A DNA stretch of 54,752 nt, taken from the NCBI GenBank assembly GCA_038148335.1, contig JAYQVF010000003.1:1-54752 (forward strand). Direction: 5' to 3'. Below, in pieces: positions 2,820 through 40,341 of the stretch. Source of the stretch: Alphaproteobacteria bacterium (GTDB taxonomy: Bacteria > Pseudomonadota > Alphaproteobacteria > SHVP01). Under the pieces are notes generated by a model. The model was not told where the DNA came from, did not search any database, and saw only the letters and a list, made by a program, of their open reading frames with translations. Both the position numbers and the translations under genes were made by a program. Positions within the stretch are counted from its first letter, which is position 1. Each line of letters opens with the position of its first letter.

Positions 2820-2835
2820 GTTTGGCCGTTCCTCT

Positions 2836-4143: not shown

Positions 4144-4173
4144 CGATTTATTCGCTCTTTGTTGGAGGAGGCT

Positions 4174-4704: not shown

Positions 4705-4726
4705 CCGCTAACTCCGGAAACCGGTC

Positions 4727-5758: not shown

Positions 5759-5889
5759 GTTAGACCCCTTTTGATTTCCTCCCAGACGAGCGCATATCCT
5801 AGGCGCTCAAGCCCATATGGCAACCTCGAACAGCCGGTTTTGCGCCGATTCCGGGGTTGCCGCTCGCCATGCAGACAGGGGTTGGGCCG

Positions 5890-7089
5890 CTATTCGATGG
5901 TTTCGGCGTAGCGGACGGCGTTGATCATCGAGGAATCCATCAACCAGGCCTTCATGCGGACGTCGTCCGCTGTGATCTGTTTCATCTCGTCCATGATGGC
6001 GCGGCGCTTGTCCGGATCGCGCTCGCGCATGCGGTGGTGGTTGGCGTCCGACATGCGGTGGACGTAGTCGGTGGCGATCGTCTTGCGCTGGCGGGTATAG
6101 CGGTCGAACACATCCATCCCGGCGCGGCCATGCCAGACGTCGTGGATCTTGCCGGTCAGGTTGATCGCGTCGTGCACGCCGCAGTTCAGGCCGAGGCCGC
6201 CGTTGGGCGTATTGAGGTGCGCCGCGTCGCCGGCGAGCAGGATACGGCCGACGTTGAACGTCTCGGTGACGCGCATGTGGGTGCGGTAGCTGCCGCGGGC
6301 CAGGATGTCGTAGCGCTCGGCGCGCGGCACGATGCGCTGGAAGTGGGCGTTGATGTTGTCGTCGGACAGCGCCTGCTCCGGCGTCTGATCGGGTTGCGGC
6401 GTGATCCCCGAACGCCAGCGATCGGGCACGCGCAGCAGCGAGAAGTTACCGTCGTCGGTCCACACGTAGCTGACGTTCGACAGGCCCTCGTAGTACTTTT
6501 CGAACGGGAAGTCGGTAATCGCGACCATCGTGAAGATGGGATAGGTCTTGCCGTCGAAGCCGAGATCGAGCACCTGGCGGATGGTGGAGCGCCCGCCGTC
6601 GGCGGCGATCGCAAAGCGCCCGGCGACGGTTTCTTCCTCGTCGCCGCGGCGGACCGTGAACGCGGCATGATCGTCGCCCTGGGCGACGCCGACGACCTCG
6701 GCGCCCCAGTGGATCTCGACGTTGTCGCGCTGCCCGAGCACGTCGACGAGATGGCGCACGACGTGGAACTGTTCGCACTGGACGCGGTAGGGGTGTCCGG
6801 TTTCGCCCTCGAGCACCCGTAGATCGAAGACCGCCCGTTCGCTGGTGTTCTGGAAGCGGTACTGCCAGGACGGGCATTTCGCGCCCTTGGCGAGAATGAC
6901 GTCGGTGACGCCCATCTCTTCGAGCATGTCGAGGGTCGCGGGATGCCAGGTCGAGGCGCGCAGATCGGTCGGGATCTCTTCCGATTTGTCGAAGACCACC
7001 GTCGGGATGCCCATGAGGGACAGCCGGTAGGCACAGATCAGGCCGATCGGGCCGCCGCCCGCAATGATGACGCGCTCGGGGATGCTCAT
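5890..7089 (-). CDS. FAD-dependent (group A, aromatic-hydroxylase-type) monooxygenase
   Basis: ORF 5890-7188. Start moved to the ATG at 7087-7089 (MSIPERVIIAGGGPIGL, dinucleotide-binding GxGxxG). Also has the ADGGRS and LAGDAAHLNTPNGGLGLN motifs typical of PheA/TfdB-like flavoprotein hydroxylases. Confidence 0.85.
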   Translation of the reverse strand: MSIPERVIIAGGGPIGLICAYRLSLMGIPTVVFDKSEEIPTDLRASTWHPATLDMLEEMGVTDVILAKGAKCPSWQYRFQNTSERAVFDLRVLEGETGHPYRVQCEQFHVVRHLVDVLGQRDNVEIHWGAEVVGVAQGDDHAAFTVRRGDEEETVAGRFAIAADGGRSTIRQVLDLGFDGKTYPIFTMVAITDFPFEKYYEGLSNVSYVWTDDGNFSLLRVPDRWRSGITPQPDQTPEQALSDDNINAHFQRIVPRAERYDILARGSYRTHMRVTETFNVGRILLAGDAAHLNTPNGGLGLNCGVHDAINLTGKIHDVWHGRAGMDVFDRYTRQRKTIATDYVHRMSDANHHRMRERDPDKRRAIMDEMKQITADDVRMKAWLMDSSMINAVRYAETIE

Positions 7090-7292
7090 GGGCCCCTCAT
7101 CCTTCTTGCCGAAACAAAGCCAACGCCCGCGCGGTTTTCCTAGCACCTTGCGCCGCCGCGCGCAGCCTCTCGGCGTCGGCATGCGCATCTGGCGATCGCC
7201 GCGGCTCCGGATACCCGCCGGCGGCCGCGCGCAACGGTGACCTCCGGCCGGCGAGGTTTCTTGTTATCGTGCCAGCGGAAGGAGAACGGGAC

Positions 7293-8294
7293 ATGGGCAA
7301 ACTGATCGCCGGCACCTGGACCGAGGAGGACCAGTTGCCGACATCGAAGGACGGCGCGTTCGAGCGGCCGGATTCGGTGCTGCGCAACTGGGTGACCGCG
7401 GACGGCGCCGCCGGTCCGAGCGGCGACGGCGGCTTTGCGGCGGCGGCGGGTCGCTATCACCTCTATGTCGCGATCAACTGTCCCTGGGCGCACCGCACGA
7501 TGATCATGCGCGTGTTGAAGAAGCTCGAAGACGCGATCTCGATGTCGGTGGTCAGGCCCAGCCGCGGCGGCGAGGGCTGGGCGTTCGATGCAGACGGCGG
7601 CTTTCCCGACCACCTGTTCGGCGCGACCTACTTGCACGAGATCTACACCCGCTCGCACCCCGACTACACGGGCCGGGTGACGGTGCCGGTGCTGTTCGAC
7701 AAGGAGCGCGGCGTCATCGTCAGCAACGAATCCTCCGAGATCATCCGGATGCTGAACGAGGCGTTCGACGCGTGGGCCGACACCGGCCACGACTATTATC
7801 CGCACGACTTGCGGCCCACGATCGACGGGTGGAACGAGAAGATCTACGCCAGGCTCAACAACGGGGTCTATCGCGCGGGCTTCGCCCGTTCGCAGGAAGC
7901 CTATGAACGGGCCTACGACGACGTCTTTGCGATGTTGGACGAAATGGACGCGCACCTGGCGGCGCACCGCTACCTCGCCGGCGGCACGCTGACGGAAGCC
8001 GACATCCGGGCGTTTCCGACGCTGGTGCGCTTCGACGTCGCCTACTACGGCGCCTTCAAGTGCAACAAGAAGATGATCCGCGACTATCCGCACCTGTCGG
8101 GCTACCTGCGCGAGCTGTACCAACTGCCCGGCGTTGCGGCGACGGTGAATACCGACATCTACAAGGCGGGCTATTACTCCATCAGCAAGGAGCGCAATCC
8201 CCTCGGCATCGTGCCCAAGGGGCCCCTGGTCGACTTCGACGCGCCGCACGGGCGCGAGCGTACGGATCAGCCTGACGGCGTTACGACCTCATAG
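7293..8294 (+). CDS. yqjG: Xi-class glutathione S-transferase / glutathionyl-hydroquinone reductase-like
   Basis: ORF 7269-8294; ATG at 7293 is preceded by GGAAGGAGA. Has the C-P-W-A-H-R active-site motif and the YqjG/PcpF-like length (about 333 aa). Confidence 0.85.
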   Translation: MGKLIAGTWTEEDQLPTSKDGAFERPDSVLRNWVTADGAAGPSGDGGFAAAAGRYHLYVAINCPWAHRTMIMRVLKKLEDAISMSVVRPSRGGEGWAFDADGGFPDHLFGATYLHEIYTRSHPDYTGRVTVPVLFDKERGVIVSNESSEIIRMLNEAFDAWADTGHDYYPHDLRPTIDGWNEKIYARLNNGVYRAGFARSQEAYERAYDDVFAMLDEMDAHLAAHRYLAGGTLTEADIRAFPTLVRFDVAYYGAFKCNKKMIRDYPHLSGYLRELYQLPGVAATVNTDIYKAGYYSISKERNPLGIVPKGPLVDFDAPHGRERTDQPDGVTTS

Positions 8295-9181
8295 AGTTCG
8301 CCGCCGGCGCCGCGCACGGTGATGGCGCTGCCGCCGCGATAGGGCCAGGCCGGGTCGCCGGCGTAGGCCGGACCGAGCGCATCCTGCGCGAGGCGGCCGT
8401 GGTCGGCGCGGGCCAGCGTCACCAAGGCGACGCCCGGCGGCAGTTCTCCGTCGCTGCAGGGACGCGGCGTCGCCGTGGGCTGCATGCCGTCGACCTGGAT
8501 CACGCTGCGACCGTCGAGCTGCACGGTCGACATCGGCAGCGGCTGCCCGGCGTCGACGAGGCCATAGCCTTCGCCCAAGAAATTCATGCCCCGCGTGCGA
8601 CTGGTCGTCCTGGCGAGGCCGAAGCGCGCGAGCAGATCGTCATGGGTGGCATCGAAGTCGGGAACGCCCAGCACCATGATGAAGATGCGGTCGATGTCGC
8701 TCTGCGGTTGCGGCAACTGATGCACGGGGCTCGCGCCCTTGGGCACGTTGGTCAGGTAAAGCGCCTCGCCGTCCGGTCCGACGACCTGCATCGCCTTGAT
8801 GTCGGGCGATGACTTCAGCGGATGCGGCTCGCCGATGATGGTGAATTCGCTGCCCTTCATGCGCTCGTGCATGGCGTCGGTGTCGCGCAGGAGAATCTCG
8901 ATCGCCGACCAGCCGTGGTGGGCGAGCGGGCGATAGTCCGGCGGCCGCGTCCCTTCGACGAGTCTGACCCATCCGGGCTCCCCGCTTTCGGGCCGCATCA
9001 ACTGCCAGCGGCGTCCCGTCATCGCCGGGGCACCCCACGAGGCGGCCAGCGCGTCGCCGACCGTTCCCGAGTCATCGGCGACATAGCCGACGGTCCGCGT
9101 GTAGCGGGCGATGGCGGCTTCGAGGTCGGCGACCGTCACCGTTGCCGCCAATACCGGACCCGCACCAAATCCCTGCACCAT
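8267..9181 (-). CDS. VOC/glyoxalase-fold protein (two-domain), function unknown
   Basis: ORF 8267-9226. Start moved to the ATG at 9179-9181 (MVQGFGAGPV...), with GGGAGG about 9 nt upstream. Its 3' end overlaps the convergent GST gene by 28 nt. Confidence 0.65.
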   Translation of the reverse strand: MVQGFGAGPVLAATVTVADLEAAIARYTRTVGYVADDSGTVGDALAASWGAPAMTGRRWQLMRPESGEPGWVRLVEGTRPPDYRPLAHHGWSAIEILLRDTDAMHERMKGSEFTIIGEPHPLKSSPDIKAMQVVGPDGEALYLTNVPKGASPVHQLPQPQSDIDRIFIMVLGVPDFDATHDDLLARFGLARTTSRTRGMNFLGEGYGLVDAGQPLPMSTVQLDGRSVIQVDGMQPTATPRPCSDGELPPGVALVTLARADHGRLAQDALGPAYAGDPAWPYRGGSAITVRGAGGELYEVVTPSG

Positions 9182-9239
9182 TACCTTCGCCTCCCGTCTA
9201 TCAGGACGCGCGCATAGTGCCTGCACCTCGGAGCGACCG

Positions 9240-9392
9240 CTAGCGCCGGATTTCGAAGGCGCCCTTCTCGCCGCTCAGAAGACCGGGGCCGGCCGGAATC
9301 TCGCCGATCGGCTGGCGCTCGCGCGGCGTGCCGCAGGCGGCGACGACCAGCAATGCGATGGCAAGAACGAATGGCAGCGGCTTGACCGACAC
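9240..9392 (-). CDS. small putative lipoprotein
   Basis: In frame with ORF 9240-9503. The GTG at 9390-9392 gives VSVKPLPFVLAIALLVVAAC/GTPRER... with a lipobox (VAAC). The longer ORF would overlap the porin gene. Confidence 0.4.
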   Translation of the reverse strand: MSVKPLPFVLAIALLVVAACGTPRERQPIGEIPAGPGLLSGEKGAFEIRR

Positions 9393-9394
9393 GA

Positions 9395-18106: not shown

Positions 18107-19018
18107 ATGACCGGATACGCCAGAACAGCCCTTCTTCTCGCCGGCCTGACCGCGCTTTTTCTCGGCGCCGGCTTTCTGGTCGGCGGCCAGGGCGGCCTGC
18201 TGATCGCGCTCGTCCTGGCGCTCGGGATGAACCTTTTCGCCTACTGGAACTCCGACAGCCTGGTGCTGCGGATGTACGGCGCCAAGCAGGTCGGGGCGGA
18301 CAGCCATCCCCGGCTGTTCCGGCTGGTGGAGCAATTGGCGGCGCGCGGCGACCTGCCGATGCCGAAGGTCTACATCATGGAGAATGCCCAGCCCAACGCG
18401 TTCGCCACCGGGCGCAACCCGCAGAACGCCGCCGTGGCAGTCACGAGCGGCCTGATGAACAAACTGAGCGAGGCGGAACTCGCCGGCGTCATCGGCCACG
18501 AACTGGCGCACATCAAGAACCGCGACACACTGATCATGACGATCACGGCGACCATCGCCGGCGCGCTCGGCATGCTGGCCAACTTCGCCCTGTTCTTCGG
18601 CGGCCGGCGCGACAGCCCGCTGGGGCCAATCGGATCGATCGCCGTGATGATCCTCGCGCCGCTGGCGGCGATGCTGGTGCAGATGGCGATCAGCCGCAGC
18701 CGCGAGTACGAGGCCGACCGCGTCGGCGCGGAGATCGCCGGCAACCCGCTTTGGCTCGCCGCGGCGCTCGACAAGATCGCGGGCGGCGCGGCGCGGATCG
18801 ACAACGTGGCCGCCGAGAACAATCCGGCGACGGCGCACCTGTTCATCATCAACCCGCTGCACGCCCACAAGCGCGACAACCTGTTCTCGACCCACCCGTC
18901 GACCGCGAACCGCATCGCGCGCCTCGAAGCGATGGCGTCCGGCGTGGCGGGATCGTCGTACCAGACGGAAGAGCGACGCAGCCCCCGCCGCGTGCGTCCG
19001 GGCCACCTGCCGCACTAG
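18107..19018 (+). CDS. htpX: zinc metalloprotease HtpX
   Basis: ORF 17981-19018. Start moved to the ATG at 18107 ([14 protein letters not shown]...). HELAH zinc motif, NAFATG, and four TM segments typical of HtpX/M48. Confidence 0.9.
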
Positions 19019-19068: not shown

Positions 19069-20166
19069 ATGGAACTCGGAATCTTTCTCATGCCGGCGAG
19101 CGACCCGAAGCGGCCCCTCGCCGACGTCATCGACTGGAACATCGAGGTCATTCGGCAAGCGGACGCGCTCGGCTATGCCGAGGCGTGGGTCGGGCAGCAC
19201 ATCACGACGCCATGGGAGCCCCTGCCCTCGCCGCAGCAGATCATCGCCGGCGCCATCGGGCAGACGCAGAACATCCGGCTGGGCACCGGCGTCGAGGTGC
19301 TCTACCAGCAGCACCCGCTGCGGCTCGCCGCGGAGCTGATCCAGCTCGACCACATGAGCCGCGGACGGCTGATGTTCGGCTTCGGCGCGGGCGGCACCTT
19401 GACCGACGGCCAGCTCTACGGCCTCGACTTCGCCAAGGGCGAGAACGGCGCGCGGTCGCGCGAGGCGCTGGAAATCATCCTGCAGGCGTGGTCGCCCGAG
19501 GGGCCGGACGATTTCGACGGCGAGTTCTGGTCGACGCGGCGGCCGAACTACAACGATCGCTACTACTGGCACCTCAAGCCCTATGCGCCGGCAGAGCCGC
19601 GCATCGCCTTTGCCGGGTTCATGCCGAAATCGGGATCGCTGATGATCGCGGGCGAAAAGGGTTACATCCCGATGAGCTTCAACGTGGCGCCGCAGCACGT
19701 CTCGGTGCACTGGCCGTCGATCGAGGAAGGCGCGGCACGGTCCGGGCGGACGCCGTCGCGCGACAACTGGCGCCAGATCCGCGAGATCTACGTCGCCGAC
19801 ACCGACGCCGAAGCGCGCAGGGCCGTCGTCGACGGCTTCGCCGGGCGGTTCTGGAACGGGTATTTCAGCATCATCGCCGAACGGCTCGGCATCGCCGACA
19901 TGTTCCGCCGCGACGGTGCGCCACCGGACGCCAAGGTCGATGCCGCCTATCTCGTGGATCACGGCACGTGGTTCGTCGGCAGCCCGGACAAGGTCGCGAA
20001 CGAGATCGTCGACCAGTACGAACAGACCGGCGGCTTCGGCGTGCTGCTGCAGATCGGCTTCGACTATGCCGATGCGGACGCGCGCGGCGGGTGGTTCCGT
20101 TCGATGGCGCTTCTGGCCCAAGAAGTCATGCCACGGGTCAACCGGCGGCTCGGCCGCAAGACATAG
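19069..20166 (+). CDS. LLM-class (luciferase-like) flavin-dependent oxidoreductase
   Basis: 365 aa, MELGIFLMPAS...AWVGQH...LGTGV...FGFGAGG. Typical bacterial-luciferase-family TIM-barrel sequence. Confidence 0.85.
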   Translation: MELGIFLMPASDPKRPLADVIDWNIEVIRQADALGYAEAWVGQHITTPWEPLPSPQQIIAGAIGQTQNIRLGTGVEVLYQQHPLRLAAELIQLDHMSRGRLMFGFGAGGTLTDGQLYGLDFAKGENGARSREALEIILQAWSPEGPDDFDGEFWSTRRPNYNDRYYWHLKPYAPAEPRIAFAGFMPKSGSLMIAGEKGYIPMSFNVAPQHVSVHWPSIEEGAARSGRTPSRDNWRQIREIYVADTDAEARRAVVDGFAGRFWNGYFSIIAERLGIADMFRRDGAPPDAKVDAAYLVDHGTWFVGSPDKVANEIVDQYEQTGGFGVLLQIGFDYADADARGGWFRSMALLAQEVMPRVNRRLGRKT

Positions 20167-20251
20167 CGAACGCCGGGCCAGCGCTTTTCAAGGCCGGCCC
20201 GAGCCCCCATACTGCGAACGCTTTGCAGATTCGCGGATGGGAGGCCAGATC

Positions 20252-21445
20252 ATGACCAAATACGTCCATCACGACCTCAAGATCGATCCGACGCCCGAAG
20301 AGGCGGCACGCCAGGCCTTCATGACGAGCATGCGGCTGTATGTGCTGCACGACATGGCGAACGGCATGCGCACGGTCTACGAGAACGAGGTCGAACCCGC
20401 CTTCAAGCGCAAGAACCGACGCGCACCCAAGGACGGCGTCGAGGTTCATCGCGCGCTCAAGAGCGACACGACCTTCAAGTTCTATTCGTCGATGCGCTGC
20501 AACGCGCAGGAGATGGTGTTCCGCTCCATCCTGCCGACCGTCGAACGCAACCAGGACACCCTGAACAAGAAGGCGAAGGCGCTCAGCAAGTCGAAGAAGG
20601 CCAAGGGCACAGTCGACACCGACCCGAAGTTCGAGGTGCCGCGCAGCGTCGCCGCGATCGACATCCATCTGATGCCGGGCAACTACGACACCGAATACGG
20701 CCCCGACGACGTGACCCAGGGCGCGGTCTACGACAACGGCATCTCGGTCTTCAGCATGGGGTTCTTCGGCGACAATCTTGACGACATCGGCAGCTCGATC
20801 TCGCTGTTCATCAAGACGAAGTATCCCAAATTCAAGCCGGCGCGGATCCTCGACATGGGCTGCACCATCGGCCACAACACGGTGCCGTGGGCCAAGACCT
20901 TTCCCAAGGCCGAGGTGCACGCGATCGACGTCGGCGCGCCGGTGGTCCGCTACGGCCACGCCCGGGCGCAGTCCGAGGGCGTCAACGTCCACTTCCATCA
21001 GCAGAACGCCGAAGCGACGACGTTCGAGGACGAAACCTTCGACCTGATCTTTTCGTCGATGTTCCTGCACGAGGTGCCGAAGAAGGGCATCAAGAAGGTG
21101 TTCAAGGAAGCGCGCCGCCTGCTGAAGCCGGGCGGGCTGATGCTTCACATGGAACTGCCGCCGAACAAGATGCTGGGCGCCTACGACCAGTTCTATCTGG
21201 ACTGGGACTCCTACTACAACAAGGAGCCGTTCTATAAGCCGTTCCGCGACGCCGACCCGCAAGCGGTGTGCGCCGAGGCCGGCTTCGCCAAGAGCAAGTT
21301 CGTCCAGTTCATCATTCCGAGCCTGGGCCAGTACGGCACCAAGGCCGTCACCGACGCGGTCAAGCACCAGACCGGCAAGGCCGACGACCACACCGGCCGG
21401 TTTGCGGCCGGCATCCACTGGTACTGCTTCGGGGCGTGGAAGTGA
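20252..21445 (+). CDS. class I SAM-dependent methyltransferase with ~190-aa N-terminal extension (paralogue 1 of 4)
   Basis: ORF 19916-21445; ATG at 20252 preceded by GGGAGG. Motif I ILDMGCTIG, AIDVG, FDLIFSSMFLHE and LLKPGGLMLHME. The conserved pre-core string IDIHLMPGNYDTEY is shared with the paralogues. Confidence 0.85.
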   Translation: MTKYVHHDLKIDPTPEEAARQAFMTSMRLYVLHDMANGMRTVYENEVEPAFKRKNRRAPKDGVEVHRALKSDTTFKFYSSMRCNAQEMVFRSILPTVERNQDTLNKKAKALSKSKKAKGTVDTDPKFEVPRSVAAIDIHLMPGNYDTEYGPDDVTQGAVYDNGISVFSMGFFGDNLDDIGSSISLFIKTKYPKFKPARILDMGCTIGHNTVPWAKTFPKAEVHAIDVGAPVVRYGHARAQSEGVNVHFHQQNAEATTFEDETFDLIFSSMFLHEVPKKGIKKVFKEARRLLKPGGLMLHMELPPNKMLGAYDQFYLDWDSYYNKEPFYKPFRDADPQAVCAEAGFAKSKFVQFIIPSLGQYGTKAVTDAVKHQTGKADDHTGRFAAGIHWYCFGAWK

Positions 21446-21783
21446 GCGGCGACGGCAAGAAACCGTTGCGCTACAGCGTCCGCGGCAAGAAGTCCCAGTT
21501 CTTTTCCGCCGAGGGGGTCGACGAGCTGGTGTCGATCACCATGGCGCTGGCCCAGGAACTGTGGGTGGTGAAGGAGCGGCTGGCGGCCTTCGAGACGCTG
21601 GCGACCAAGAAGAAGGTCTTCACCCAGAAGGAACTGGACAGCGTCAGGTTCACCCCGGCGCAGCGCGCCAAGCTGGACGCCGAGAGCCAGGCGTTCATCG
21701 ACCGCGTGTTCTTCGTGCTGCGCGAGCGCGTCGAGGGGCTGGCCGCCGATCCTGACGAACCGGCGCCGCCGAAAGAGCCGTGA
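21442..21783 (+). CDS. 113-aa hypothetical protein, translationally coupled
   Basis: In frame with ORF 21268-21783. The GTG at 21442 overlaps the methyltransferase stop (GTGA). Predicted helical and charged (…VSITMALAQELWVVKERLAAFETLATKKK…). I recognise no family. Confidence 0.55.
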   Translation: MSGDGKKPLRYSVRGKKSQFFSAEGVDELVSITMALAQELWVVKERLAAFETLATKKKVFTQKELDSVRFTPAQRAKLDAESQAFIDRVFFVLRERVEGLAADPDEPAPPKEP

Positions 21784-22079
21784 TCGTCATCGTCGGCACG
21801 GTGCGCGTGCCGCCGGACAAGATCGATGCGGCGCGGCCGCACATGAGCGCCATGCTCGAGGCATCGCGCGCCGAGGACGGTTGCCTCACCTACAACTACG
21901 CACAGGACGTGCTCGACCCCGGCCTGATCCACGTCAGCGAGGTGTGGGAGAGCGAGGCGGCGCTGAAGGCGCACTTCACGACGCCGCACATGGCGGCGTG
22001 GCGCAAGGCATGGCCCGATCTCGGTATCGGCGAGCGCAACCTGACCAAATTCACGGCCAGCGAGTCGGAGACGATCTAG
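21780..22079 (+). CDS. ABM (antibiotic-biosynthesis-monooxygenase/Dabb fold) domain protein
   Basis: 99 aa. GTG start overlaps the previous stop (GTGA). Typical YgiN-like strings: IVIVGTVRV..., GCLTYNY, VSEVWESEAALKAHF. Confidence 0.8.
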   Translation: MIVIVGTVRVPPDKIDAARPHMSAMLEASRAEDGCLTYNYAQDVLDPGLIHVSEVWESEAALKAHFTTPHMAAWRKAWPDLGIGERNLTKFTASESETI

Positions 22080-22192
22080 CGCGTTCCCGACTCGGACGCT
22101 CGATCTCGAACGATCCTCGGTCAGGACGCCCATGAACGGGGCGCAGCGCGCGCCGGACCGCTATGATGCGGCCACATCAAGGGGAGGCCAGC

Positions 22193-23890
22193 ATGGGCGA
22201 CACCACCATTCGCAGTCACTACGTCGCGGTCGGCAACCGCCGGGTCCACTATCGGCGGGCGGGTTCAGGACCGCCGGTGGTGATGCTGCATCCCTCGCCG
22301 AGCTGGGCGAAGGGCCTGGACGCGTATACCCGCGTCTTCGCCGAGAAGTTCACGGCCATCGCCCTGGATACGCCCGGCTACGGGCATTCCGACCTGCTCG
22401 ACATGGTGAAGCCCGAGATTCCGGACTTCGCGGAAGCGCTCAAGGATACGCTGGATGCGCTCGGTATCGAGAAGTGCGGGCTGTGGGGGTCGCATACCGG
22501 GGCGTCGATCGCGATGGAGTTCACCGTGCGCTACCCGGAGCGGGTGACCGTGTTCGTCATCGACGGCTATCCGGCCTACGAGGACGCCTACCGCGAGGAC
22601 ATGACGAAGTACTACCTGCCGCCCTATGCGCCGAAGTGGGACGGCTCGCACCTGATGTACCAGTGGCACAAGTTCCGCGAGCAGTTCATCTTCTCGCCGA
22701 CCTTCCGCTGGCATCGCGATAGCCGCACGACGACCGCCGCACCGCCGCCGCCGGGCCCGATGCAGGATATGGTGCTGCCGCGGTTTCTCACCGGCGAGGC
22801 CTACAACGTCGGCTATTCGGCCGTCTTCCGCTATGCAGGCCTAGAGCCGATTTCGAAGCTGAAGGTGCCGACGTGCTTCGGCGCGCGGCTGGGCGATTCG
22901 CTGATCAAGGGCTTTCCGCTGATTGACGCGCGCAAGTCCGAAGGGTCGTGGCTGGAGGAGTTGCCGCGCGACATCGGCGAGGCGGCGCTGCGCTATCGCG
23001 AGATCCTGGAACAGCACCCGGCGCCAACCGACGCGCCGCCGGCGCCGGCTTCCGCGCCGATCGCCGGCAAGCTGAACCGCGGCCATCTCGACCTCGGGTT
23101 CGGGCAGATGGCGATGAGCAGCGCCGGGCCCGCCGACGGCGCTCCGCTGATCCTGCTGCCGCAACTGCCGGGCGACGTGTCGCTCGACGCCGGCTTCATG
23201 CTCGAACTTGCCAAGCTCGGGCATCGCGTCATCGCGCTGGACATGCCGGGCAATGGCGATTCGGACGACTGGGCCCTGCCCCACTCGATCGTCAACTACG
23301 CGGGCGCCTTTGCGGAAGCGATCGACGCGCTGGGATTCGACAAGATCGATCTTCTCGGCCACCAGGGCGGCGCTTCGGTCGCGGTGGAGTTCGTGCGTCA
23401 CCAGGCTGCACGGGTGCGCAACCTGCTGCTGTTCGCGCCGCTCGCCATGCCGGACCCCGTGCGCCTCGCCATCGCGCCGCACTATGCACCCCCGATCGAG
23501 CCCAAGTGGGACGGCACCCACCTGATCAGTCTGTGGTTCGCGCTGCGCAACGAGCAGCTGTTCTGGCCGTGGTACAACGAATCGATCCAGGCCGTGCGCA
23601 AGATCGAACCCGAAATCGACCCCAAGCTGCTGGAGCGCAAGATCACCGGCATCCTCAAGCACTACCGCAACTACCACAAAGTCTGGCAGGCGGTGTTCGA
23701 CTATCCGGTGCGCGACAACCTGCAAATGATCCCGGTGCGCACGCTGGTGGCGTCGATCGAGGACGATCCGTTCCATCGTTTTGCCCCCGAGGCGGCGGCG
23801 CTCGTGCCGGGCGGCGACTATGAGATGGTCGACTTCCAGAACGACGCCATCGCCACCGCCGTGGACAGGTTCCTCAAGGCCGGATCGTGA
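22193..23890 (+). CDS. double-module alpha/beta-hydrolase-fold protein (elbows G-S-H-T-G-A and G-H-Q-G-G-A)
   Basis: ORF 22163-23890; ATG at 22193 preceded by AAGGGGAGG. N-module: LHPSPS, LDTPGYGHSD, WGSHTGAS. C-module: LPQLPG, LDMPGNGDSD, LGHQGGAS. Confidence 0.85.
   Translation: MGDTTIRSHYVAVGNRRVHYRRAGSGPPVVMLHPSPSWAKGLDAYTRVFAEKFTAIALDTPGYGHSDLLDMVKPEIPDFAEALKDTLDALGIEKCGLWGSHTGASIAMEFTVRYPERVTVFVIDGYPAYEDAYREDMTKYYLPPYAPKWDGSHLMYQWHKFREQFIFSPTFRWHRDSRTTTAAPPPPGPMQDMVLPRFLTGEAYNVGYSAVFRYAGLEPISKLKVPTCFGARLGDSLIKGFPLIDARKSEGSWLEELPRDIGEAALRYREILEQHPAPTDAPPAPASAPIAGKLNRGHLDLGFGQMAMSSAGPADGAPLILLPQLPGDVSLDAGFMLELAKLGHRVIALDMPGNGDSDDWALPHSIVNYAGAFAEAIDALGFDKIDLLGHQGGASVAVEFVRHQAARVRNLLLFAPLAMPDPVRLAIAPHYAPPIEPKWDGTHLISLWFALRNEQLFWPWYNESIQAVRKIEPEIDPKLLERKITGILKHYRNYHKVWQAVFDYPVRDNLQMIPVRTLVASIEDDPFHRFAPEAAALVPGGDYEMVDFQNDAIATAVDRFLKAGS
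23543..23581 (+). repeat. 39-nt exact repeat, copy 1 (inside the C-module of 22193-23890)
   Basis: CTGCGCAACGAGCAGCTGTTCTGGCCGTGGTACAACGAA is identical to 25213-25261 and encodes LRNEQLFWPWYNE. Confidence 0.9.
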
Positions 23891-25554
23891 CGCTCAGCAG
23901 ACACTTCGTCACCGTCGGCAACCGGCAGGTGCATTACCGGCGCGCGGGTGCCGGCGCACCGGTCGTGCTGTTGCATGCAAGTCCAAGCTCGTCCTGGGCG
24001 CTGACGACGTTCATCGAGACGTTCGGCCGTGAGTTCGCGGCGATCGGCCTCGATACGCCGGGCTATGGCCTGTCCGATCCCCTGGCGATCGAAACGCCGG
24101 AGATCGGCGACTATGCCGAGGCGCTGGCCGAGACGCTGGACGCGCTGGGCATCGGACGCTGCGCGCTGTTCGGCTCGCACACCGGCGCCACAATCGCGCT
24201 GGAATTCGCCCGGCGCTATCCGGAACGCGTCTCGGTGGCGCTGTTCGACGGCTACCCGGCGTGGCCCGAGCACGAGCGGCTCAACATGGAGCGGGAGTAT
24301 CTGCCGCCGTGGCAGCCGGTGTGGACCGGCCTGCATCTCGTCGATTTCTTTCTGCGCTACCGCGAGATGAGCCTGTACTGGCCGTGGTACGACCGGCGCA
24401 AGGCGACCCGCGCCAAAGCGGGCCTGCGAAATCTGGACATGCTGCACCGGATGACCCTGGCCGGCTTCGTCGCGGGGCGCGGCTACGCCAAGGGCTATGC
24501 CGCGGTGTTCCGCTACGACCAGATCGGCGCAGTGCGCGATCTCAAGGTTCCGACGTGCTTTGCCGGTCGCGCCGAGGATTCGCTCAACGAATCGCTAAGA
24601 CTTCTGGGCGACCTGCAGGATATCTGCTGGCGCGAGACCCTGCCCGCAGACGACCATGCCGCGGCGCTGCGCTATCTCGAGATCATTCGCGAGCGGCCCG
24701 GCGACGGCGAGACGCCGCTGCCCGAAACGCGGCCCCTGACGGGACGCATCGCGCGACGATTCGTCCGGTGGTCGGGCGGCGACGTCCTCGTGCGCGAAAC
24801 CGGTAACGGCGACGGCACGCCGCTGATCGTCCTGCCGCAAGTGCCGGGATCGAGCGAGCCTTACGAGACGCTGATGCAGGCGCTGTCGCGCGGCCGCCGG
24901 GTCATCGCCATCGACCCGCCCGGCAACGGCGATTCGGACCTGGCCGCGGCCTTGCCGTTTGCGCAACTTGCGCAGGCGGTGACGGAGGTTCTCGACGGCC
25001 TCGGCCTGGCGATGGTGGACCTCTACGGCCATCAGGGTGGCGCGACGCTCGCCGCGGCGGTGGCGGCGCTGGCGCCGGGGCATGTCCGGCGAATGGTCCT
25101 CGATGCACCGCCGCTGCTGCCGGAGGACCTGCGCGACGCGCTGGCACCCCACTATGCGGCGCCGATCGAGCTGGACGCCGAGGGCGGCCATTTGTTGAAA
25201 CTATGGCATGCCCTGCGCAACGAGCAGCTGTTCTGGCCGTGGTACAACGAAACCCTGGCCGCGGTCCGCGCGGTCGAGCCGGACCTCGAACCGTCACGGC
25301 TGACCGTGCGCGCGATCGGGATTCTGAAGCAGCATCGCAACTACGCACCGAGCTACGCCGCCCTGTTTGCGGCCGATCTCGGCGGCTGGCTCGACACCAT
25401 CGCCTGTCCGACGCTGGTGGCGGCAGCGGAGAACGATCCGTTTGCGGCGTTCGCGCCCGCCGCCGCCGCGCGCATCGCCGGCGCAGAAACGGCCACCCTG
25501 CCGATCCCGGCCGTGGACCGGGCGGTGCCGATCCGGAACTTTCTGGAAAACTAG
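23887..25554 (+). CDS. double-module alpha/beta-hydrolase-fold protein (elbows G-S-H-T-G-A and G-H-Q-G-G-A)
   Basis: 555 aa. GTG start overlaps the previous stop (GTGA). Same N/C module pattern as 22193-23890. Confidence 0.85.
   Translation: MTLSRHFVTVGNRQVHYRRAGAGAPVVLLHASPSSSWALTTFIETFGREFAAIGLDTPGYGLSDPLAIETPEIGDYAEALAETLDALGIGRCALFGSHTGATIALEFARRYPERVSVALFDGYPAWPEHERLNMEREYLPPWQPVWTGLHLVDFFLRYREMSLYWPWYDRRKATRAKAGLRNLDMLHRMTLAGFVAGRGYAKGYAAVFRYDQIGAVRDLKVPTCFAGRAEDSLNESLRLLGDLQDICWRETLPADDHAAALRYLEIIRERPGDGETPLPETRPLTGRIARRFVRWSGGDVLVRETGNGDGTPLIVLPQVPGSSEPYETLMQALSRGRRVIAIDPPGNGDSDLAAALPFAQLAQAVTEVLDGLGLAMVDLYGHQGGATLAAAVAALAPGHVRRMVLDAPPLLPEDLRDALAPHYAAPIELDAEGGHLLKLWHALRNEQLFWPWYNETLAAVRAVEPDLEPSRLTVRAIGILKQHRNYAPSYAALFAADLGGWLDTIACPTLVAAAENDPFAAFAPAAAARIAGAETATLPIPAVDRAVPIRNFLEN
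25213..25261 (+). repeat. 39-nt exact repeat, copy 2 (inside the C-module of 23887-25554)
   Basis: Identical 39-mer to 23543-23581. The flanking bases differ on both sides. Confidence 0.9.
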
Positions 25555-26384
25555 CCGGCCAGGCGGCGCTTGAGAAACTCGTCGATCAGGCGGGCCATGG
25601 TTTCCGGTTGGTCCTGGCTGACGCGATGGTCGCAGCCTGCCACGTCGTGCGCTTCCGATCCGGGAATGAGATCCTTGAGGCGCGCCATCTTGTCGGCGGG
25701 GAATACGTGAGAGCTGTCGCCGCGAAGAATGAGAGTCGGACAAGCGACCTTGATCTCATCCCACATGTCTTGTTCGAGAATGCCTTCGGTGTATTGCGCC
25801 CCCGAAGGATAGTAGAACCACTCGACCTCGCCGGAATCCAAGTGGCGAAAGCTGTGCTCGGCGTAGTGGTCCTTCATGTCCTGCGACCACAGGCTGCTGA
25901 ACGGCATCGCCGCCTTGGCGGTGGCAAAGTCGGGAAAGCGATGCTTGCTGACGATCTCGTCCTTCACGTCGGCGCTGATCTGCTTGTCGAGCGAAAGACC
26001 GGGGTCCGCAACGACAAGGGCGGAAACGCGCTTCGGGTATTGCGACGCCACCAGCAACGCAATGTTGCCGCCGGTGGCAGCGCCGACCAGGACCGCCTTG
26101 GGCACCTGCAGTTCGTCCAGCAGTTCCATCAAGTCCCAAACGTATTCCTGCAGGACGTAGCCGCGTTCGGGGTAATCCGAGTGGCCGTGGCCGCGCGCGT
26201 CCGGCGCGATGAAACGGTTGGGGAGCGTGCTCGCCTCGACCACGAAATCCCAGACCCGGGCATTGGTGCGGTTGGGGTGCAGGAGGACGATCGGCGGCGC
26301 CTCGCCCGGCCAATCGAGGTAACTGACCCGCAGGCGGGACAATCGAATCTCCTCGGGGATCGCCGGACGGGTGAAATCGACCAT
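25551..26384 (-). CDS. single-module alpha/beta-hydrolase-fold protein with Ala at the elbow (G-A-A-T-G-G)
   Basis: ORF 25551-26420 has a TTG start; the ATG at 26382-26384 is preferred but uncertain. Motifs: LLHPNRTNARVW, APDARGHGHSD, VGAATGGN, and a late His in GCDHRV. Confidence 0.75.
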   Translation of the reverse strand: MVDFTRPAIPEEIRLSRLRVSYLDWPGEAPPIVLLHPNRTNARVWDFVVEASTLPNRFIAPDARGHGHSDYPERGYVLQEYVWDLMELLDELQVPKAVLVGAATGGNIALLVASQYPKRVSALVVADPGLSLDKQISADVKDEIVSKHRFPDFATAKAAMPFSSLWSQDMKDHYAEHSFRHLDSGEVEWFYYPSGAQYTEGILEQDMWDEIKVACPTLILRGDSSHVFPADKMARLKDLIPGSEAHDVAGCDHRVSQDQPETMARLIDEFLKRRLAG

Positions 26385-26470
26385 GCCGCGATGGGTATTG
26401 TGTCGCCGTTCGCGGGTCAAGGAAATTGCAACGCTCTGCGGGCTGCGGCGGGTGTAGTAAAGTCCCGGCC

Positions 26471-29605: not shown

Positions 29606-30727
29606 CTACGCCGGCTTGCGCGCGTCCAGGACGTAAATCCGCATCCCCGGGATATCGGTCGGCGCCAGCGCCACGGTGGCAGCGTTGTGCGAGAAGCCGG
29701 CCTCAACCGCGACCTCGGCCCAGTCGGTGTCGCCCAGCGCCGTCACAAAAGGTTCTGCGTTGTAGTGCGTGCTCCAGCCCGACATTGCCTGCGCGTAGGG
29801 AGACTTGCCTTCGTTGTGGGCGAAGTCCATGTGCAGCGCGATGCCGCCCGGCGCCAACAAGCGATAGGTTTCCTTGAGATAGTTGCGCAGCGCCTTTGAT
29901 GAAGTCTCATGCATCATGATGCATGAGGTAATGAGATCGAAGCTGCCGTCGGGAAAGTCGGTCTTCTCAGCGTTCTGCTGCGAGAAATGGACGGTATAGC
30001 CGAGCGAATCGGCCCGCTTGTGTCCGTAGCGCAGCACGGGCGCGCCGATGTCGATGGCGTGGACCTCGGCATCGGGAAACTTCGCCGCGGCGAGACAAGC
30101 GACCGGCCCCACGCCCGTCCCCATGTCGAGAATGCGTTTCGGCTTGAGGCTGGCGCAGTACTTGTCGAAGTAGGCCATGAGGTTGCGGCCGAAGCCGTCG
30201 TGATAGGGGCCACGATGCCCCCGTGCGTACATGAACGCACCCCGATCGAGCAGCGCACCCTGATAGGCGTCACCGTCGACGTATTCGGTGTGGTAGTTGC
30301 CCGGCATGACGTGGATATCGATGCCGGCGAGGTAGCGCGGCGCCTTGAGCGTCGGATCGAGCCGGAGCGTGCCCTTGGTGCGGCCGGTCCTGGCAATCTT
30401 CCTGTTGAGCGCATCGTCCTGACGATCCAGCGAGTCCTGAACGGAATCCCAGATCATTTCCTGGGTCGTCCGGCTGAGCGAACCCCAGGCCTGATGGAAG
30501 GGATGCCTTTCCATCGCCTGGCGCACCTCCTTGCGATCCTGCGGCTTGCGCCCGTGCGTGCGCTCGAACGACGGCTCAACGGCCAGCCGATAGACGTCGT
30601 CGTTGCCGCCGGCAATATCGGCGGCGACGTATTCACGCAGGCGCAAGGTGAAGTCCTGGCGCGCGAGTTCGTCGTGACTGATCTCCGGGGAGGCGCCGTG
30701 ACGCGCCTGGCGGGTCATGACCTGCAT
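29606..30727 (-). CDS. class I SAM-dependent methyltransferase with N-terminal extension (paralogue 2)
   Basis: 373 aa. ILDMGTGVG, AIDIG, FDLITSCIMMHE, LLAPGGIALHMD, and pre-core IDIHVMPGNYHTEY. About three quarters identical by eye to the adjacent paralogue. Confidence 0.85.
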   Translation of the reverse strand: MQVMTRQARHGASPEISHDELARQDFTLRLREYVAADIAGGNDDVYRLAVEPSFERTHGRKPQDRKEVRQAMERHPFHQAWGSLSRTTQEMIWDSVQDSLDRQDDALNRKIARTGRTKGTLRLDPTLKAPRYLAGIDIHVMPGNYHTEYVDGDAYQGALLDRGAFMYARGHRGPYHDGFGRNLMAYFDKYCASLKPKRILDMGTGVGPVACLAAAKFPDAEVHAIDIGAPVLRYGHKRADSLGYTVHFSQQNAEKTDFPDGSFDLITSCIMMHETSSKALRNYLKETYRLLAPGGIALHMDFAHNEGKSPYAQAMSGWSTHYNAEPFVTALGDTDWAEVAVEAGFSHNAATVALAPTDIPGMRIYVLDARKPA

Positions 30728-30754: not shown

Positions 30755-31879
30755 CTATTCCGGGATGCGGGCGTCGAGAACGTACATGTGGTTACCCGGC
30801 GCAACGGTCGACATCGGCACGACGACCGCAGCGTTGTGCGAGAAGCCCTCTTGCACGGCAACCTCGGCCCAGTCGGTGTCGCCGAGCGTGCCGATAAACG
30901 GCTCCGCGTTGTAGTGCGTGCTCCAGTCGACCATCGCCTGGAGATAGGGCGTCTTGTCCTCGTTGTGCGGGAAATCCATATGCAGCGCCATGCCGCCTGG
31001 CGCCAGCAGACGCCTGGTTTCCTTGAGGTAGTTGCGCAGCGCCTTGGACGAAGTCTCGTGCATCATGATGCAGGAGATGATCAGGTCGAAGCTCTCCTCC
31101 GCGAAGTCGGTCGATTCGGCGTTCTGCTGCGAGAAGTGAATCGTGTGGCCGAGCGACTCGGCCCGCTTGTGGCCGTAGCGCAGCAACGGCGCGCCGACGT
31201 CGATGGCATGGATCTCCGCGTCGGGAAAACGTTCGGCGAAGGCGCAGGTGACCTGTCCTGCCCCTGAACCCATGTCGAGAATCCGCTTGGGCCGAAATCC
31301 CGGACGCGCCTTGTCGAGGTAGGCGAGAAGATCGCGGCCGTACGAATCGTGATAGGCGCCGCGCATGCCGCGGGCATAGATGAACGCGCCGCGGTCGAGC
31401 AGCGCGCCCTGATAGGCGTCGTCGTCGGTGTATTCGGTGTGGTAGTTGCCAGGCATGCAATGGATGTCGACGGCAGTGAGGTAGCGCGGCGCGGCGACCG
31501 AAGGGTCGAGACGCAGGGACCCCTTCGCCTTGACCACTTGGGCGATGCGCTTGTTGAGCGCATCGTCCTGACGATCAAGAGAATCCTGCACCGAATCCCA
31601 GATCAGTTCCTGAGTCGCGCGATTCAGCGAGCCCCAGGCCTGGTGGTAGGGATGGCGCTCCATGGCCTGACGCACTTCCTTGCGGGACGCCGGCTTGCGG
31701 CCGTGTGCGCGCTCGAAGGCAGGCTCCACATCCAGGCGGTAGACGTCATCGTTGCCGCCGACGATGTCACCGGCGACGTATTCGCGCAGGCGCTGGGCGA
31801 AGTCCTGCCGCGCCATCTCGTCGTGACTGATGTGGGGGAACGCGCCGTGGGGTGCCTGCCGGGTCATCATCGTCGCCAT
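30755..31879 (-). CDS. class I SAM-dependent methyltransferase with N-terminal extension (paralogue 3)
   Basis: ORF 30755-31951. Start moved to the ATG at 31877-31879 (MATMMTRQAPHG...), with AAGGAGG about 6 nt upstream. The N-terminus is colinear with paralogue 2. Confidence 0.85.
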   Translation of the reverse strand: MATMMTRQAPHGAFPHISHDEMARQDFAQRLREYVAGDIVGGNDDVYRLDVEPAFERAHGRKPASRKEVRQAMERHPYHQAWGSLNRATQELIWDSVQDSLDRQDDALNKRIAQVVKAKGSLRLDPSVAAPRYLTAVDIHCMPGNYHTEYTDDDAYQGALLDRGAFIYARGMRGAYHDSYGRDLLAYLDKARPGFRPKRILDMGSGAGQVTCAFAERFPDAEIHAIDVGAPLLRYGHKRAESLGHTIHFSQQNAESTDFAEESFDLIISCIMMHETSSKALRNYLKETRRLLAPGGMALHMDFPHNEDKTPYLQAMVDWSTHYNAEPFIGTLGDTDWAEVAVQEGFSHNAAVVVPMSTVAPGNHMYVLDARIPE

Positions 31880-31949
31880 GGGTGCCTCCTTGGTTACGCG
31901 CCAGTCTAGCGCCCAGCCGAGAAGCCCGCCATCAACCCGAACCGGCAGC

Positions 31950-31977
31950 AAAAAGCCGCCTGGAAGGCGGCTTTTTG
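31950..31977 (-). terminator. rho-independent terminator (symmetrical A/T-flanked hairpin)
   Basis: AAAAAGCCGCC-TGGAA-GGCGGCTTTTT lies 32 nt downstream of the stop of 32009-32866 (minus strand). The T-run follows the stem on the minus strand. Confidence 0.7.
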
Positions 31978-35124: not shown

Positions 35125-35269
35125 ACTAAACTCCTCATGTGCCGCACGCTTATGATGGCACAATTAGATGCATTTTCGAGAAATAAATCCTTGATTCTCC
35201 TCAATAACCTTATGGTTGCACCAAGATGCCCAAGGCGACCTATCCGCGCACCTGCCAGGACGACCCCCG

Positions 35270-36856
35270 ATGACCGCTGACGGAGACGGAGACGCAGCCG
35301 CCTGCGCCGCGAACCTGCGCCAGATCCTGGGCGCCACGCATGTCTTCGACGACGCGGAGACCCGTCAGTTCTTTTCGACCGACATCTTTTACGAGAACGC
35401 TCCCTGCGCGCTGGTGGCCGCGCCGGGGACGCCGACCGAACTGGCCGAGACCGTCCGGATCGCAACCGCCGCCGGACTCGCCGTGGTGCCCCGCGGCGGC
35501 GGGATGTCCTACACGCGCGGCTACCTCGGCGGTCCGGACTCGGTCCTGGTCGACACGCGCCGTCTCGACCGGGTGGTCGAGATCAATGCCGCGGACATGT
35601 TCGTCACGGTGGAGTGCGGGATTACCTGGGAGGCGCTCGACGCGGCGCTGGCGCCGCATGGCGTACGCACGCCGTTCTGGGGCACCGGCTCGGGCCGCTA
35701 TGCGACGGTGGGCGGCACGCTGTCGCAGAACGCGATCAACTACGGGTCGGGCCGCTTTGGGCCGGCGGCCGATTCGGTCCTGGGGCTGACGATCGCGGTC
35801 GCCGACGGGCGTCTGCTGACGACCGGTTCGGCGGCAACGCCGCACGCGCCCTCGCCGTTCTTTCGTACCTATGGACCCGACCTGACCGGCCTGTTCCTGG
35901 CCGACACCGGCGCCCTCGGCATCAAGGCGACCGCGACGCTGAAGCTGATCCCGCGGGCGCCCGCCACCGCCTATGCCTCGTTCTCGTTTCCCAGCGTCAC
36001 CGGGCTGTGCACGGCGATGAGCGAACTGGCGCGCCGGAGCCTGACCAGCGAATGTTCCGGTTACGACGCGCTGCTGCTGGCCTACATGATCCGCAAGCAG
36101 AGCCTTGCCGACGACGTCCGCAAGATCGGCCAGGTCGTTCGCTCCGGCCGCGGCCTGCTGGGCGGGCTGCGCGACGCCGCGCGGGTCGTTGCCGCCGGCC
36201 GCCATGCGTTCCGCGACATCGACTACTCGATCCACTTTACCGTCGACGGCCGCGACGATGGCGAGGCCACCGCCAAGATGGCCGAGGCCAAGGACATCTG
36301 CAGCCGTCTTGGCGAGGAGATCGAGCCCAGCGTTCCGCGGCTGGTGCGCGCCGGCCCCTTCCCGCTCCCGACGCTGCTGTTCAACGCCGACGGCAAGCAA
36401 TGGGTCCCGGTGCATGCCATCGTTCCCCATTCCAGAGCACTCGCCTTCGTCGCCGCGGTGGAGTCGTTTTTCGACAGCCAGCGCACCCTGCTCGACACCC
36501 ATGGCATCGAGTGGGGCAGCTTCATCGTTCCGGCGAGTACGCAGGCCATCCGCATCGAGCCCTGCCTGTTCTGGCCCGATGCGCCCAATGCGCTGCGGCG
36601 AAGCTTCTTCGATCGCGACTTTCTCGACACCCTGCCAAACCAGGCACGCAACCCGGCCGCGCACGACGCGGTTCGCGAACTGCGCAAGGGCGTTACCGCC
36701 CTGGCCAAGGATTTCGGCGCCGTCCATTTCCAGATCGCGAGGCAGTATCCCTACCGCGAGACGCGCGATCCCGAGACCTACGCGCTGTTGCGCGCGATCA
36801 AGGCCGCGGTGGATCCTAAAGGGCTCATGAATCCCGGAGCCCTCGGCCTCGACTAG
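35270..36856 (+). CDS. FAD-binding (PCMH-type, FAD-linked oxidase) oxidoreductase
   Basis: ORF 35216-36856 has a TTG start; ATG at 35270. Motifs VVPRGGGMSY and TVGGTLSQNA are typical of the FAD_binding_4 family. Confidence 0.8.
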   Translation: MTADGDGDAAACAANLRQILGATHVFDDAETRQFFSTDIFYENAPCALVAAPGTPTELAETVRIATAAGLAVVPRGGGMSYTRGYLGGPDSVLVDTRRLDRVVEINAADMFVTVECGITWEALDAALAPHGVRTPFWGTGSGRYATVGGTLSQNAINYGSGRFGPAADSVLGLTIAVADGRLLTTGSAATPHAPSPFFRTYGPDLTGLFLADTGALGIKATATLKLIPRAPATAYASFSFPSVTGLCTAMSELARRSLTSECSGYDALLLAYMIRKQSLADDVRKIGQVVRSGRGLLGGLRDAARVVAAGRHAFRDIDYSIHFTVDGRDDGEATAKMAEAKDICSRLGEEIEPSVPRLVRAGPFPLPTLLFNADGKQWVPVHAIVPHSRALAFVAAVESFFDSQRTLLDTHGIEWGSFIVPASTQAIRIEPCLFWPDAPNALRRSFFDRDFLDTLPNQARNPAAHDAVRELRKGVTALAKDFGAVHFQIARQYPYRETRDPETYALLRAIKAAVDPKGLMNPGALGLD

Positions 36857-40212: not shown

Positions 40213-40341
40213 GTCACGGCCCCGGCGGCGGCCAAGCCGCAGGATTGCCCACCGTACGTACATCCCTCGGGGACGGTCCCATTGCCGACCCCTCGTGTGG
40301 TATCTTTAGGCACGTTCTGGGGCGCACGAGCGCAGGAGACA

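Follow-up and report, generated by a model that had tools for sequence, protein, structure and literature searches.

Do six tightly packed genes on one strand work as a single unit, or are they parts that are inherited separately? The question arises at positions 19069-25554 of a 54,752-nt stretch of DNA (hereafter the window; positions 1-54,752 of contig JAYQVF010000003.1, assembly GCA_038148335.1) from an Alphaproteobacteria bacterium of the GTDB lineage SHVP01. The block encodes, all on the + strand, a luciferase-like (LLM) flavin monooxygenase (19069-20166; PF00296), a 397-aa class I S-adenosylmethionine (SAM)-dependent methyltransferase (MT; 20252-21445; Pfam Methyltransf_25/11/31), a 113-aa helical-hairpin protein with no Pfam match (21442-21783), an ABM-fold protein (21780-22079; PF03992) and two double alpha/beta-fold proteins of ~560 aa, dABH3 (22193-23890) and its tandem paralog dABH4 (23887-25554), each with two Abhydrolase_1 stretches. 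A single-module alpha/beta-fold protein (single ABH) is encoded convergently at 25551-26420 (- strand). An original prediction, made from the letters of the DNA alone, had presented the run as one coherent six-gene unit that matches no recognized pathway and may modify or break down a small molecule. No known pathway or curated family indeed matches the block, and the kinds of enzyme that it encodes suggest that a small molecule is tailored or broken down. The coherence of the unit was not confirmed: its order is kept only in close relatives, and its sub-blocks occur apart from one another. We favor, with a probability of about 0.6, the view that the block is a lineage-specific mosaic of separable modules that fill a variable slot within a conserved chromosomal backbone.

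Relatives of the locus were gathered by three routes: contigs encoding MT homologs; a search with an MT alignment through a single genome for each GTDB species (at least 589 matches, 80 loci); and a metagenome search with a double-hydrolase alignment (80 loci). The MT of the window itself had no exact match in the contig index. Comparative mapping of these loci (numbered with the prefix L) revealed a backbone common to a clade of uncultured Alphaproteobacteria, in the order CN-hydrolase, 222-aa membrane protein (-), SDR, dABH1 (optionally with dABH2), 70-aa protein (-), the slot, single ABH (-), GT9, optionally Wzy, class II aldolase, CMD, SnoaL and MT paralogs. The slot holds htpX-LLM-MT-113-aa protein-ABM-dABH3-dABH4 in the window and in L012; the order from LLM to dABH4 is identical in L094, whose contig starts inside the LLM gene. 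Loci L004-L006, L010-L012, L064, L067 and L094-L096 have the full set, which variably includes htpX, ABM or an inserted FAD_binding_4 oxidase (FAD4) and opposite-strand glyoxalase. Among these, L067 carries everything except htpX, L004-L006, L064 and L095 have the FAD oxidase (+) and glyoxalase (-) inserted upstream of dABH3, L096 is without dABH4, and an opposite-strand glyoxalase replaces ABM in L010, which is the closest relative of all, with an MT 93% identical. When the MT was 64-69% identical (L008 and L013), the slot contained the MT and 113-aa protein genes alone, without LLM, ABM or dABH3/4. Conversely, the slot of L092 and L097 contained htpX-dABH3-dABH4 and none of LLM, MT, 113-aa protein or ABM. 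The six-gene order was thus retained only where the MT was at least 84% identical, and even there with insertions and deletions that affect htpX, ABM and the FAD oxidase-glyoxalase pair; no conservation of gene set and order across distant genomes, as in a conserved operon, was observed for the block. The gene-neighborhood comparison that the original prediction had proposed as its own check therefore went against it. Because the sub-blocks are found apart in the same slot of relatives, the block splits into an LLM module, an MT-113-aa protein(-ABM) module and a dABH3-dABH4 module. The single ABH at 25551-26420 belongs to the backbone, as it is present in L008, L013, L092 and L097 regardless of slot content; the genes for dABH1 (14305-16017, +) and dABH2 (16001-17722, +), which encode further double alpha/beta-fold proteins, are also backbone genes and occur in the same four loci.

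Within the window, all six genes are genuine and closely spaced. The original prediction had placed all six same-strand open reading frames (ORFs) and the convergent seventh correctly, and all seven have a coding-type G+C content at third codon positions (0.77-0.92). Its description of the junctions was also accurate: there are 4-nt GTGA overlaps at 21442, 21780 and 23887 and a CTAG stop-stop overlap at 25551-25554, and rereading the sequence gave gaps of 50 nt (htpX-LLM), 85 nt (LLM-MT) and 113 nt (ABM-dABH3). Ribosome-binding sites (GGGAGG and GGGGAGG) precede the MT gene and the start at 22193. The gaps were free of terminator-like hairpins, as it had said; terminator-like sites occurred at chance level (9 found versus 9.7 expected), with 0 in the gaps. 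One co-transcribed operon that serves a single pathway for one small aromatic or methylated molecule would account for the shared strand, the three overlaps and the short, terminator-free gaps, and the identical order in L012 and L094 and the adjacency of MT- and dABH-family genes in five unrelated loci also speak for it. We consider this improbable, given that the sub-blocks occupy the same slot separately (L008 and L013 versus L092 and L097), that ABM is replaced in L010, that L004, L010, L064 and L095 have an opposite-strand gene within the block, and that a dABH-like gene lies within 10 kb in only about 2 of 66 MT loci outside the clade.

Two conserved promoter-like motifs, one before the MT gene and one before dABH3, also argue against a single operon. 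The motif GCTATGATG (22160-22168, +) lies about 25 nt upstream of the dABH3 start. It is invariant in 8 loci, the window among them, irrespective of whether ABM (+) or glyoxalase (-) precedes it. L010 has a 2-nt deletion, which shows that GCTATGATG is not conserved as coding sequence, and the motif is likely a -10-type element of a separate dABH3 promoter. In the LLM-MT gap, the motif TTTCAA-N16/17-CATACTG (20186-20214, +) is kept in 7/7 clade loci and partly in L008, where no LLM gene lies upstream; judged by this conservation, it is a candidate promoter for the MT gene. The glyoxalase gene lies on the opposite strand between the 113-aa protein or ABM gene and dABH3 in L004, L010 and L095, so that there must be at least two transcripts at those loci; where such an opposite-strand gene is upstream, dABH3-dABH4 must have a promoter of its own. 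The dABH3-dABH4 genes are very probably expressed from their own promoter, and we infer that the modules are transcribed separately.

Several points weigh against the modular reading. Both promoter-like motifs are weak consensus matches, the MT motif agreeing with the sigma-70 consensus at 7/12 positions, and a promoter consensus scan returned no sigma-70 site and neither motif. No terminator was found between the six genes, and read-through across all six could occur. The whole block may be functionally coupled, as its order is stable across species-level metagenome-assembled genomes (MAGs; L012 and L094) and the MT and dABH families recur together. Finally, no fusion of the MT with the 113-aa protein, which we treat below as partners, was present among the top 150 representatives.

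The MT and the 113-aa protein are the only deeply conserved part of the block, a translationally coupled two-gene unit that is present in hundreds of uncultured Proteobacteria. Among GTDB species-level loci with enough sequence, the gene for the small protein lies directly 3' of the MT gene on the same strand in 66/74. Unbiased clustering of ORFs within 7 kb recovered the MT from 78 loci and its small partner from 68; no other true neighbor family exceeded 19 loci, which is lineage synteny only. The median distance from the MT stop to the start of the small gene is 3 nt; 19 loci have a distance of -4, and 59/67 have 30 nt or less. The pair persists at 31-35% identity in Humitalea and in the metagenome fragment L173. 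At 20252-21783 of the window it has its characteristic form, a long-N-terminus MT followed by a same-strand protein of ~90-160 aa with a GVDELV...AQELWVVKERL...FIDRVFF core. The label "orphan" that the 113-aa protein had been given is therefore not tenable: it is the conserved partner of the MT and belongs to a conserved family of its own (alignments A1 and A5). A database search gave 326 clusters at 90% identity, all unnamed and without a Pfam domain, and an exhaustive profile search gave 1178 representative clusters, all of small proteins. Six homologs from Alpha- and Gammaproteobacteria aligned with 20 invariant residues, and no match was found in Pfam, PDB or Foldseek searches. GvpK-like, UbiK/UbiJ-like and ribosomally synthesized peptide-precursor identities were considered and set aside, as no profile matched and the conserved region is the helical core. 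The structural model shows a helical hairpin (helices 24-56 and 72-100), preceded by an N-terminus that is predicted to be disordered yet carries the invariant or near-invariant residues L9, R10, G15, F20 and F21; such a combination is typical of a segment that may become ordered on binding. We infer that the small protein is a stoichiometric partner in a physical complex with the MT.

The MT itself is a class I SAM-dependent methyltransferase, with intact SAM-binding motifs and Pfam matches to Methyltransf_25 (83 bits) and Methyltransf_11 (71 bits) at residues ~190-300, after an N-terminus of ~190 aa. In alignment A2, D201, G203, G207, D226, A253, D264, H273 and E274 were invariant and E254 near-invariant. 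The family, with full-length identities of 50-93% across Alpha- and Gammaproteobacteria, is marked by the ~190-aa helical N-domain and by a conserved C-terminal tail, TGRxxxGIxWYCFGAWK. An AlphaFold2 model (mean confidence, pLDDT, 87) displayed alternating strands and helices and a four-helix N-terminal domain. Foldseek analysis of this model matched the Rossmann core only (query TM-score at most 0.43, probability 1.0 to class I methyltransferases), with small-molecule N-, O- and C-methyltransferases as the best neighbors of the core and no structural match for the N-terminal domain. Named candidates did not fit. UbiE/MenG, the name given by JGI, is contradicted by NCBIfam UbiE scores of 35-43 bits against cut-offs of 216-378 (TIGR01934, 51.6 versus 158), by the extra 190-aa N-domain (UbiE/MenG have about 250 aa) and by the lack of ubi or men neighbors; the PF01209 match (50 bits) reflects the generic core. 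BioC scored 62 bits against a cut-off of 184.95 (TIGR02072), and RquA, DsyB, MmtN and OlsG-type enzymes differ in size and domains, with NCBIfam scores far below cut-off.

The main alternative to an enzyme-partner complex is an enzyme-substrate pair, in which the small protein would be the methyl acceptor, or a housekeeping modification of protein, quinone or lipid, in either case unrelated to the oxygenase and hydrolase-like neighbors. An acceptor site could lie in the invariant (R/K)-G and FF motif of the disordered N-terminus, the MT has a weak PDB match to the protein-lysine methyltransferase 5dnk, and in most lineages the pair has no other conserved neighbor and in Rhodospirillaceae adjoins sdhCDAB. 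Against it speak the small fraction of genomes that carry the MT family, which fits a housekeeping role poorly, and the presence here of up to four MT paralogs per 20 kb, most of them without the small protein; moreover, the top structural neighbors are small-molecule methyltransferases, and the MT adjoins dABH directly elsewhere. We therefore regard this alternative as unlikely. In the partner-complex reading of this ancient coupled unit, the small helical protein would be non-catalytic and would dock on the helical N-domain or the C-terminal tail of the MT, and the complex may methylate a small metabolite or a lipid-like acceptor. There is precedent for methyltransferases with a small obligatory partner in Trm112, which partners Trm9, Trm11, Mtq2 and Bud23. 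The likeness is that of a class I SAM methyltransferase with a putatively non-catalytic protein of ~100 aa, here co-encoded and translationally coupled. The differences are that Trm112 has a zinc-knuckle/beta fold whereas the present protein, known from genes and models, is an all-helical hairpin with no similarity to it, and that the acceptors of the Trm112 enzymes are tRNA, rRNA and protein, while here the acceptor is likely a small molecule.

Other neighbors of the pair vary between lineages. In Rhodospirillaceae MAGs (L002, 6170-14006, and 13-15 others) the pair is divergent from sdhCDAB and has downstream of it a convergent glyoxalase (VOC), a distant LLM gene and an HpcH/HpaI aldolase; these LLM and VOC neighbors are a second, non-orthologous association with such genes. 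Two unrelated lineages encode an M48 peptidase no more than about 1.5 kb from the pair, which may be coincidence: in the window clade it is the upstream htpX (17981-19018, +), variably present among close relatives, and in Steroidobacteraceae-type loci (L003, 12298-14262, and about 12 others) LemA and a 654-aa M48 protein are encoded downstream of the pair. A Ste24-ICMT-like link between the peptidase and the MT was considered and is kept as no more than an unexplained recurrence. When the window and four distant loci were scanned with Rfam, only tRNAs came up, with no riboswitch or other RNA near the pair.

The folds named in the original prediction (LLM, methyltransferase, ABM and hydrolase-like) were all supported by Pfam, and the LLM and ABM genes proved to be clade-specific accessories. 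The LLM protein matched PF00296 with 157.5 bits against a threshold of 27.9 over residues 1-321, and its best PDB match was the 3,6-diketocamphane 1,6-monooxygenase 4uwm of the camphor pathway (E 4e-49, residues 1-357). This full-length similarity, with an FMN-type luciferase-like fold, relates it to the type II Baeyer-Villiger monooxygenases (BVMOs), and it is predicted to be an FMN-dependent oxygenase. Unlike the camphor system, the block has no identified flavin reductase gene, no other camphor genes lie near the window LLM, and the LLM ortholog is restricted to the clade, where it occurs only in loci with an MT at least 84% identical. In SAR202, paralog expansions are reportedly linked to type II BVMOs. 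The ABM protein matched PF03992 with 71.1 bits against 23.1, its PDB relatives being uncharacterized ABM proteins; it is absent in L010 and in all loci outside the clade and is thus dispensable. Both would be oxygenase-type accessory genes recruited in this clade only.

The dABH3-dABH4 module encodes proteins with the alpha/beta hydrolase fold, with two stretches of 70-109 bits per double protein (Abhydrolase_1/6, Pfam), and their active-site residues are non-canonical, as had been suspected. Depending on the module, the nucleophile position is His, Gln or Ala. In a nine-module alignment, every N-module and each of the four dABH1/2 modules has His here, the C-modules of dABH3 and dABH4 have Gln, and Ala is found in the single ABH, whose G-A-A-T-G-G aligns to G-N-S-I-G-G of the esterase 5egn. 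The dABH3 N-module reads G-S-H-T-G-A and its degenerate C-module G-H-Q-G-G-A; Ser112 of BphD aligns to dABH3 His101, and the triad His is deleted in dABH3 and dABH4. All four dABH1/2 modules, which are 42-50% identical to one another, read G-x-H-T-G-S and retain Asp and His at the triad positions; the two genes overlap by 17 nt (16001-16017) in different frames. dABH4 is 46% (N-module) and 43% (C-module) identical to dABH3 and travels with it in L092 and L097. In the N-modules of 79 family members (30-100% identity), the nucleophile position is His in 75/79 and the adjacent residue Thr in 78/79, with a His-x-Ser/Cys oxyanion loop in 77-78/79. In the C-module the nucleophile position is free to vary, with N, H, G, W, Q or S occurring there. 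The dABH family thus combines a conserved non-serine site in module 1 with a degenerate module 2.

To our knowledge, all known alpha/beta-fold enzymes use Ser, Asp or Cys at the nucleophile position. The dABH proteins did not show a catalytic Ser, Asp or Cys of this kind, and their NCBIfam equivalog scores were far below cut-offs. Because the position is His, the database names "pimeloyl-ACP methyl ester carboxylesterase" and "haloalkane dehalogenase" are unsupported and contradicted by the active-site residues; a literature search found nothing relevant on tandem or His-nucleophile alpha/beta hydrolases. The first of these names recalls the BioC-BioH system, in which a class I methyltransferase is likewise encoded with an alpha/beta-fold protein and whose BioC is the best NCBIfam match of the MT. 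It differs in score (62 versus 185 bits for BioC, about 30-35 versus 207 bits for BioH), in His rather than Ser, and in the absence here of a biotin gene context. The meta-cleavage product C-C hydrolases BphD and HsaD give the best sequence matches of the dABH N-modules, and dABH genes elsewhere lie mostly in CoA-type catabolic clusters, where they overlap neighboring enzyme genes; these clusters encode AMP-ligase, acyl-CoA dehydrogenase, MaoC hydratase, thiolase-like/DUF35, RidA, OYE and a Liv-type ABC transporter. The dABH proteins differ from these hydrolases in having His for Ser, no triad His in dABH3/4, a duplicated architecture with a degenerate second module and scores below cut-offs.

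These residues raise the possibility that the dABH proteins are non-catalytic pseudoenzymes that act in binding, as carriers or as scaffolds, so that the block has no hydrolase step. None of the nine modules has Ser, Asp or Cys as its nucleophile, dABH3/4 have lost the triad His, the nucleophile position of the C-module varies freely, and there are faint matches to the Ndr family, whose NDRG proteins are non-catalytic. The near-invariant G-x-H-T-G and His-x-Ser of the N-module argue instead for chemistry or for specific ligand or metal binding, as does the placement of dABH genes inside CoA-type catabolic operons, and on balance a pure pseudoenzyme appears rather unlikely. In our reading, dABH3 and dABH4 are tandem duplicates whose conserved non-serine N-module site comprises His33-x-Ser35 and His101-Thr102, with the C-module as a degenerate structural copy.

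Genes related to the separate modules also meet outside the clade. An MT-family gene directly adjoins a dABH gene in five unrelated loci (L090, L100, L125, L141 and L149). In L090 (Humitalea), the MT and the small protein stand beside dABH together with an FAD oxidase, a class II aldolase, GntR and an SBP_bac_5 transporter. The densest co-occurrence of MT and dABH genes outside the window clade is in L100, where positions 2223-15549 carry on one strand two dABH genes, two SBP_bac_5 genes, two MT-family genes, a PAS-GGDEF gene and a zinc-type dehydrogenase. FAD4 homologs lie directly beside dABH genes in 13 metagenome loci, and the FAD4 oxidase of the window (35216-36856, +) is homologous to the oxidase inserted between ABM and dABH3 in sister loci. 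The 222-aa membrane protein of the backbone (h222; 12584-13252, -; 5-6 predicted transmembrane segments), which has no Pfam or NCBIfam match, adjoins the MT-113-aa protein pair in L073 (Eilatimonas), L088 and L173 and a dABH gene in L158, L169 and L172. This recurrence of the same families side by side in unrelated genomes suggests that MT, dABH, FAD oxidase and h222 form a loose functional guild for small-molecule metabolism and not a fixed pathway.

The original prediction had located the block genes correctly and had missed their paralogs within the window, namely dABH1 and dABH2, three MT paralogs (29606-30727, -; 30755-31951, -; 40282-41505, +) and the related FAD oxidase. The block is thus part of a larger paralog-rich region with 4 MTs and 9 alpha/beta modules. 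The MT paralogs are about 37-40% identical to the block MT, so that four copies lie within 21 kb; those at 29606 and 30755 are without the C-terminal TGR...WYCFGAWK tail, and none of the three is followed by a small-protein gene. Around the window paralogs are genes for a TRAP transporter, an aromatic-type FAD hydroxylase, GST, CoA-transferases and a methylisocitrate-lyase-like protein, together with class II aldolase, CMD, SnoaL and VOC genes. Paralog expansions of catabolic enzyme families are described for dark-ocean SAR202 (Landry et al. 2017, PMC5395668). The dense local paralogs of the window, accompanied by a BVMO-like monooxygenase, SnoaL, VOC, TRAP and CoA-transferase genes, resemble that pattern by analogy only, since the phylum (here Alphaproteobacteria) and the expanded families differ.

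Further from the block, positions 1971-10693 of the window carry genes for a single alpha/beta hydrolase, a TRAP transporter (DctPQM), an FAD_binding_3 hydroxylase, a 341-aa GST, a 319-aa protein without a family and a porin; the TRAP-hydroxylase-CN-hydrolase order is also present in L008, so that synteny reaches far past the block. A 70-aa hydrophobic protein (17719-17931, -) is encoded convergently to dABH2 with a second CTAG stop-stop overlap (17719-17722), and related loci retain it in their backbone.

Sequence searches against Pfam, NCBIfam and PDB returned generic superfamily matches at most and no specific function for any block gene. The likeness of the LLM protein to 3,6-diketocamphane monooxygenase and the surrounding gene content fit a role in oxidizing or tailoring small acids of alicyclic or aromatic type, which the modules may share. 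The enzymes are new members of known superfamilies, and the MT-partner pairing and the G-x-H-T-G double architecture are new variants. A bolder reading, which we hold only tentatively and think doubtful as a whole, is that the MT, its helical partner, the 222-aa membrane protein, the G-x-H-T-G dABH proteins and the FAD oxidase make up an unrecognized, widespread modular system for small molecules in aquatic and soil Proteobacteria, in which dABH would be a new catalytic type that uses His, possibly with a metal, and the MT would need a dedicated helical subunit.

The units worth studying are thus the MT-partner pair and, separately, the G-x-H-T-G proteins, and not the six-gene block. Three conserved families at this locus are without any annotation, namely the N-terminal domain of the MT, the small helical protein that accompanies it and the 222-aa membrane protein, and a fourth, dABH, carries esterase and dehalogenase names that conflict with its active-site residues. 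In uncultured Proteobacteria from marine, freshwater and soil habitats all four occur commonly, clustered with genes for oxygenases, CoA enzymes and transporters. Knowledge of the methyl acceptor and of the His-for-Ser chemistry would correct hundreds of database annotations and could reveal an unrecognized route in the turnover of dissolved organic matter.

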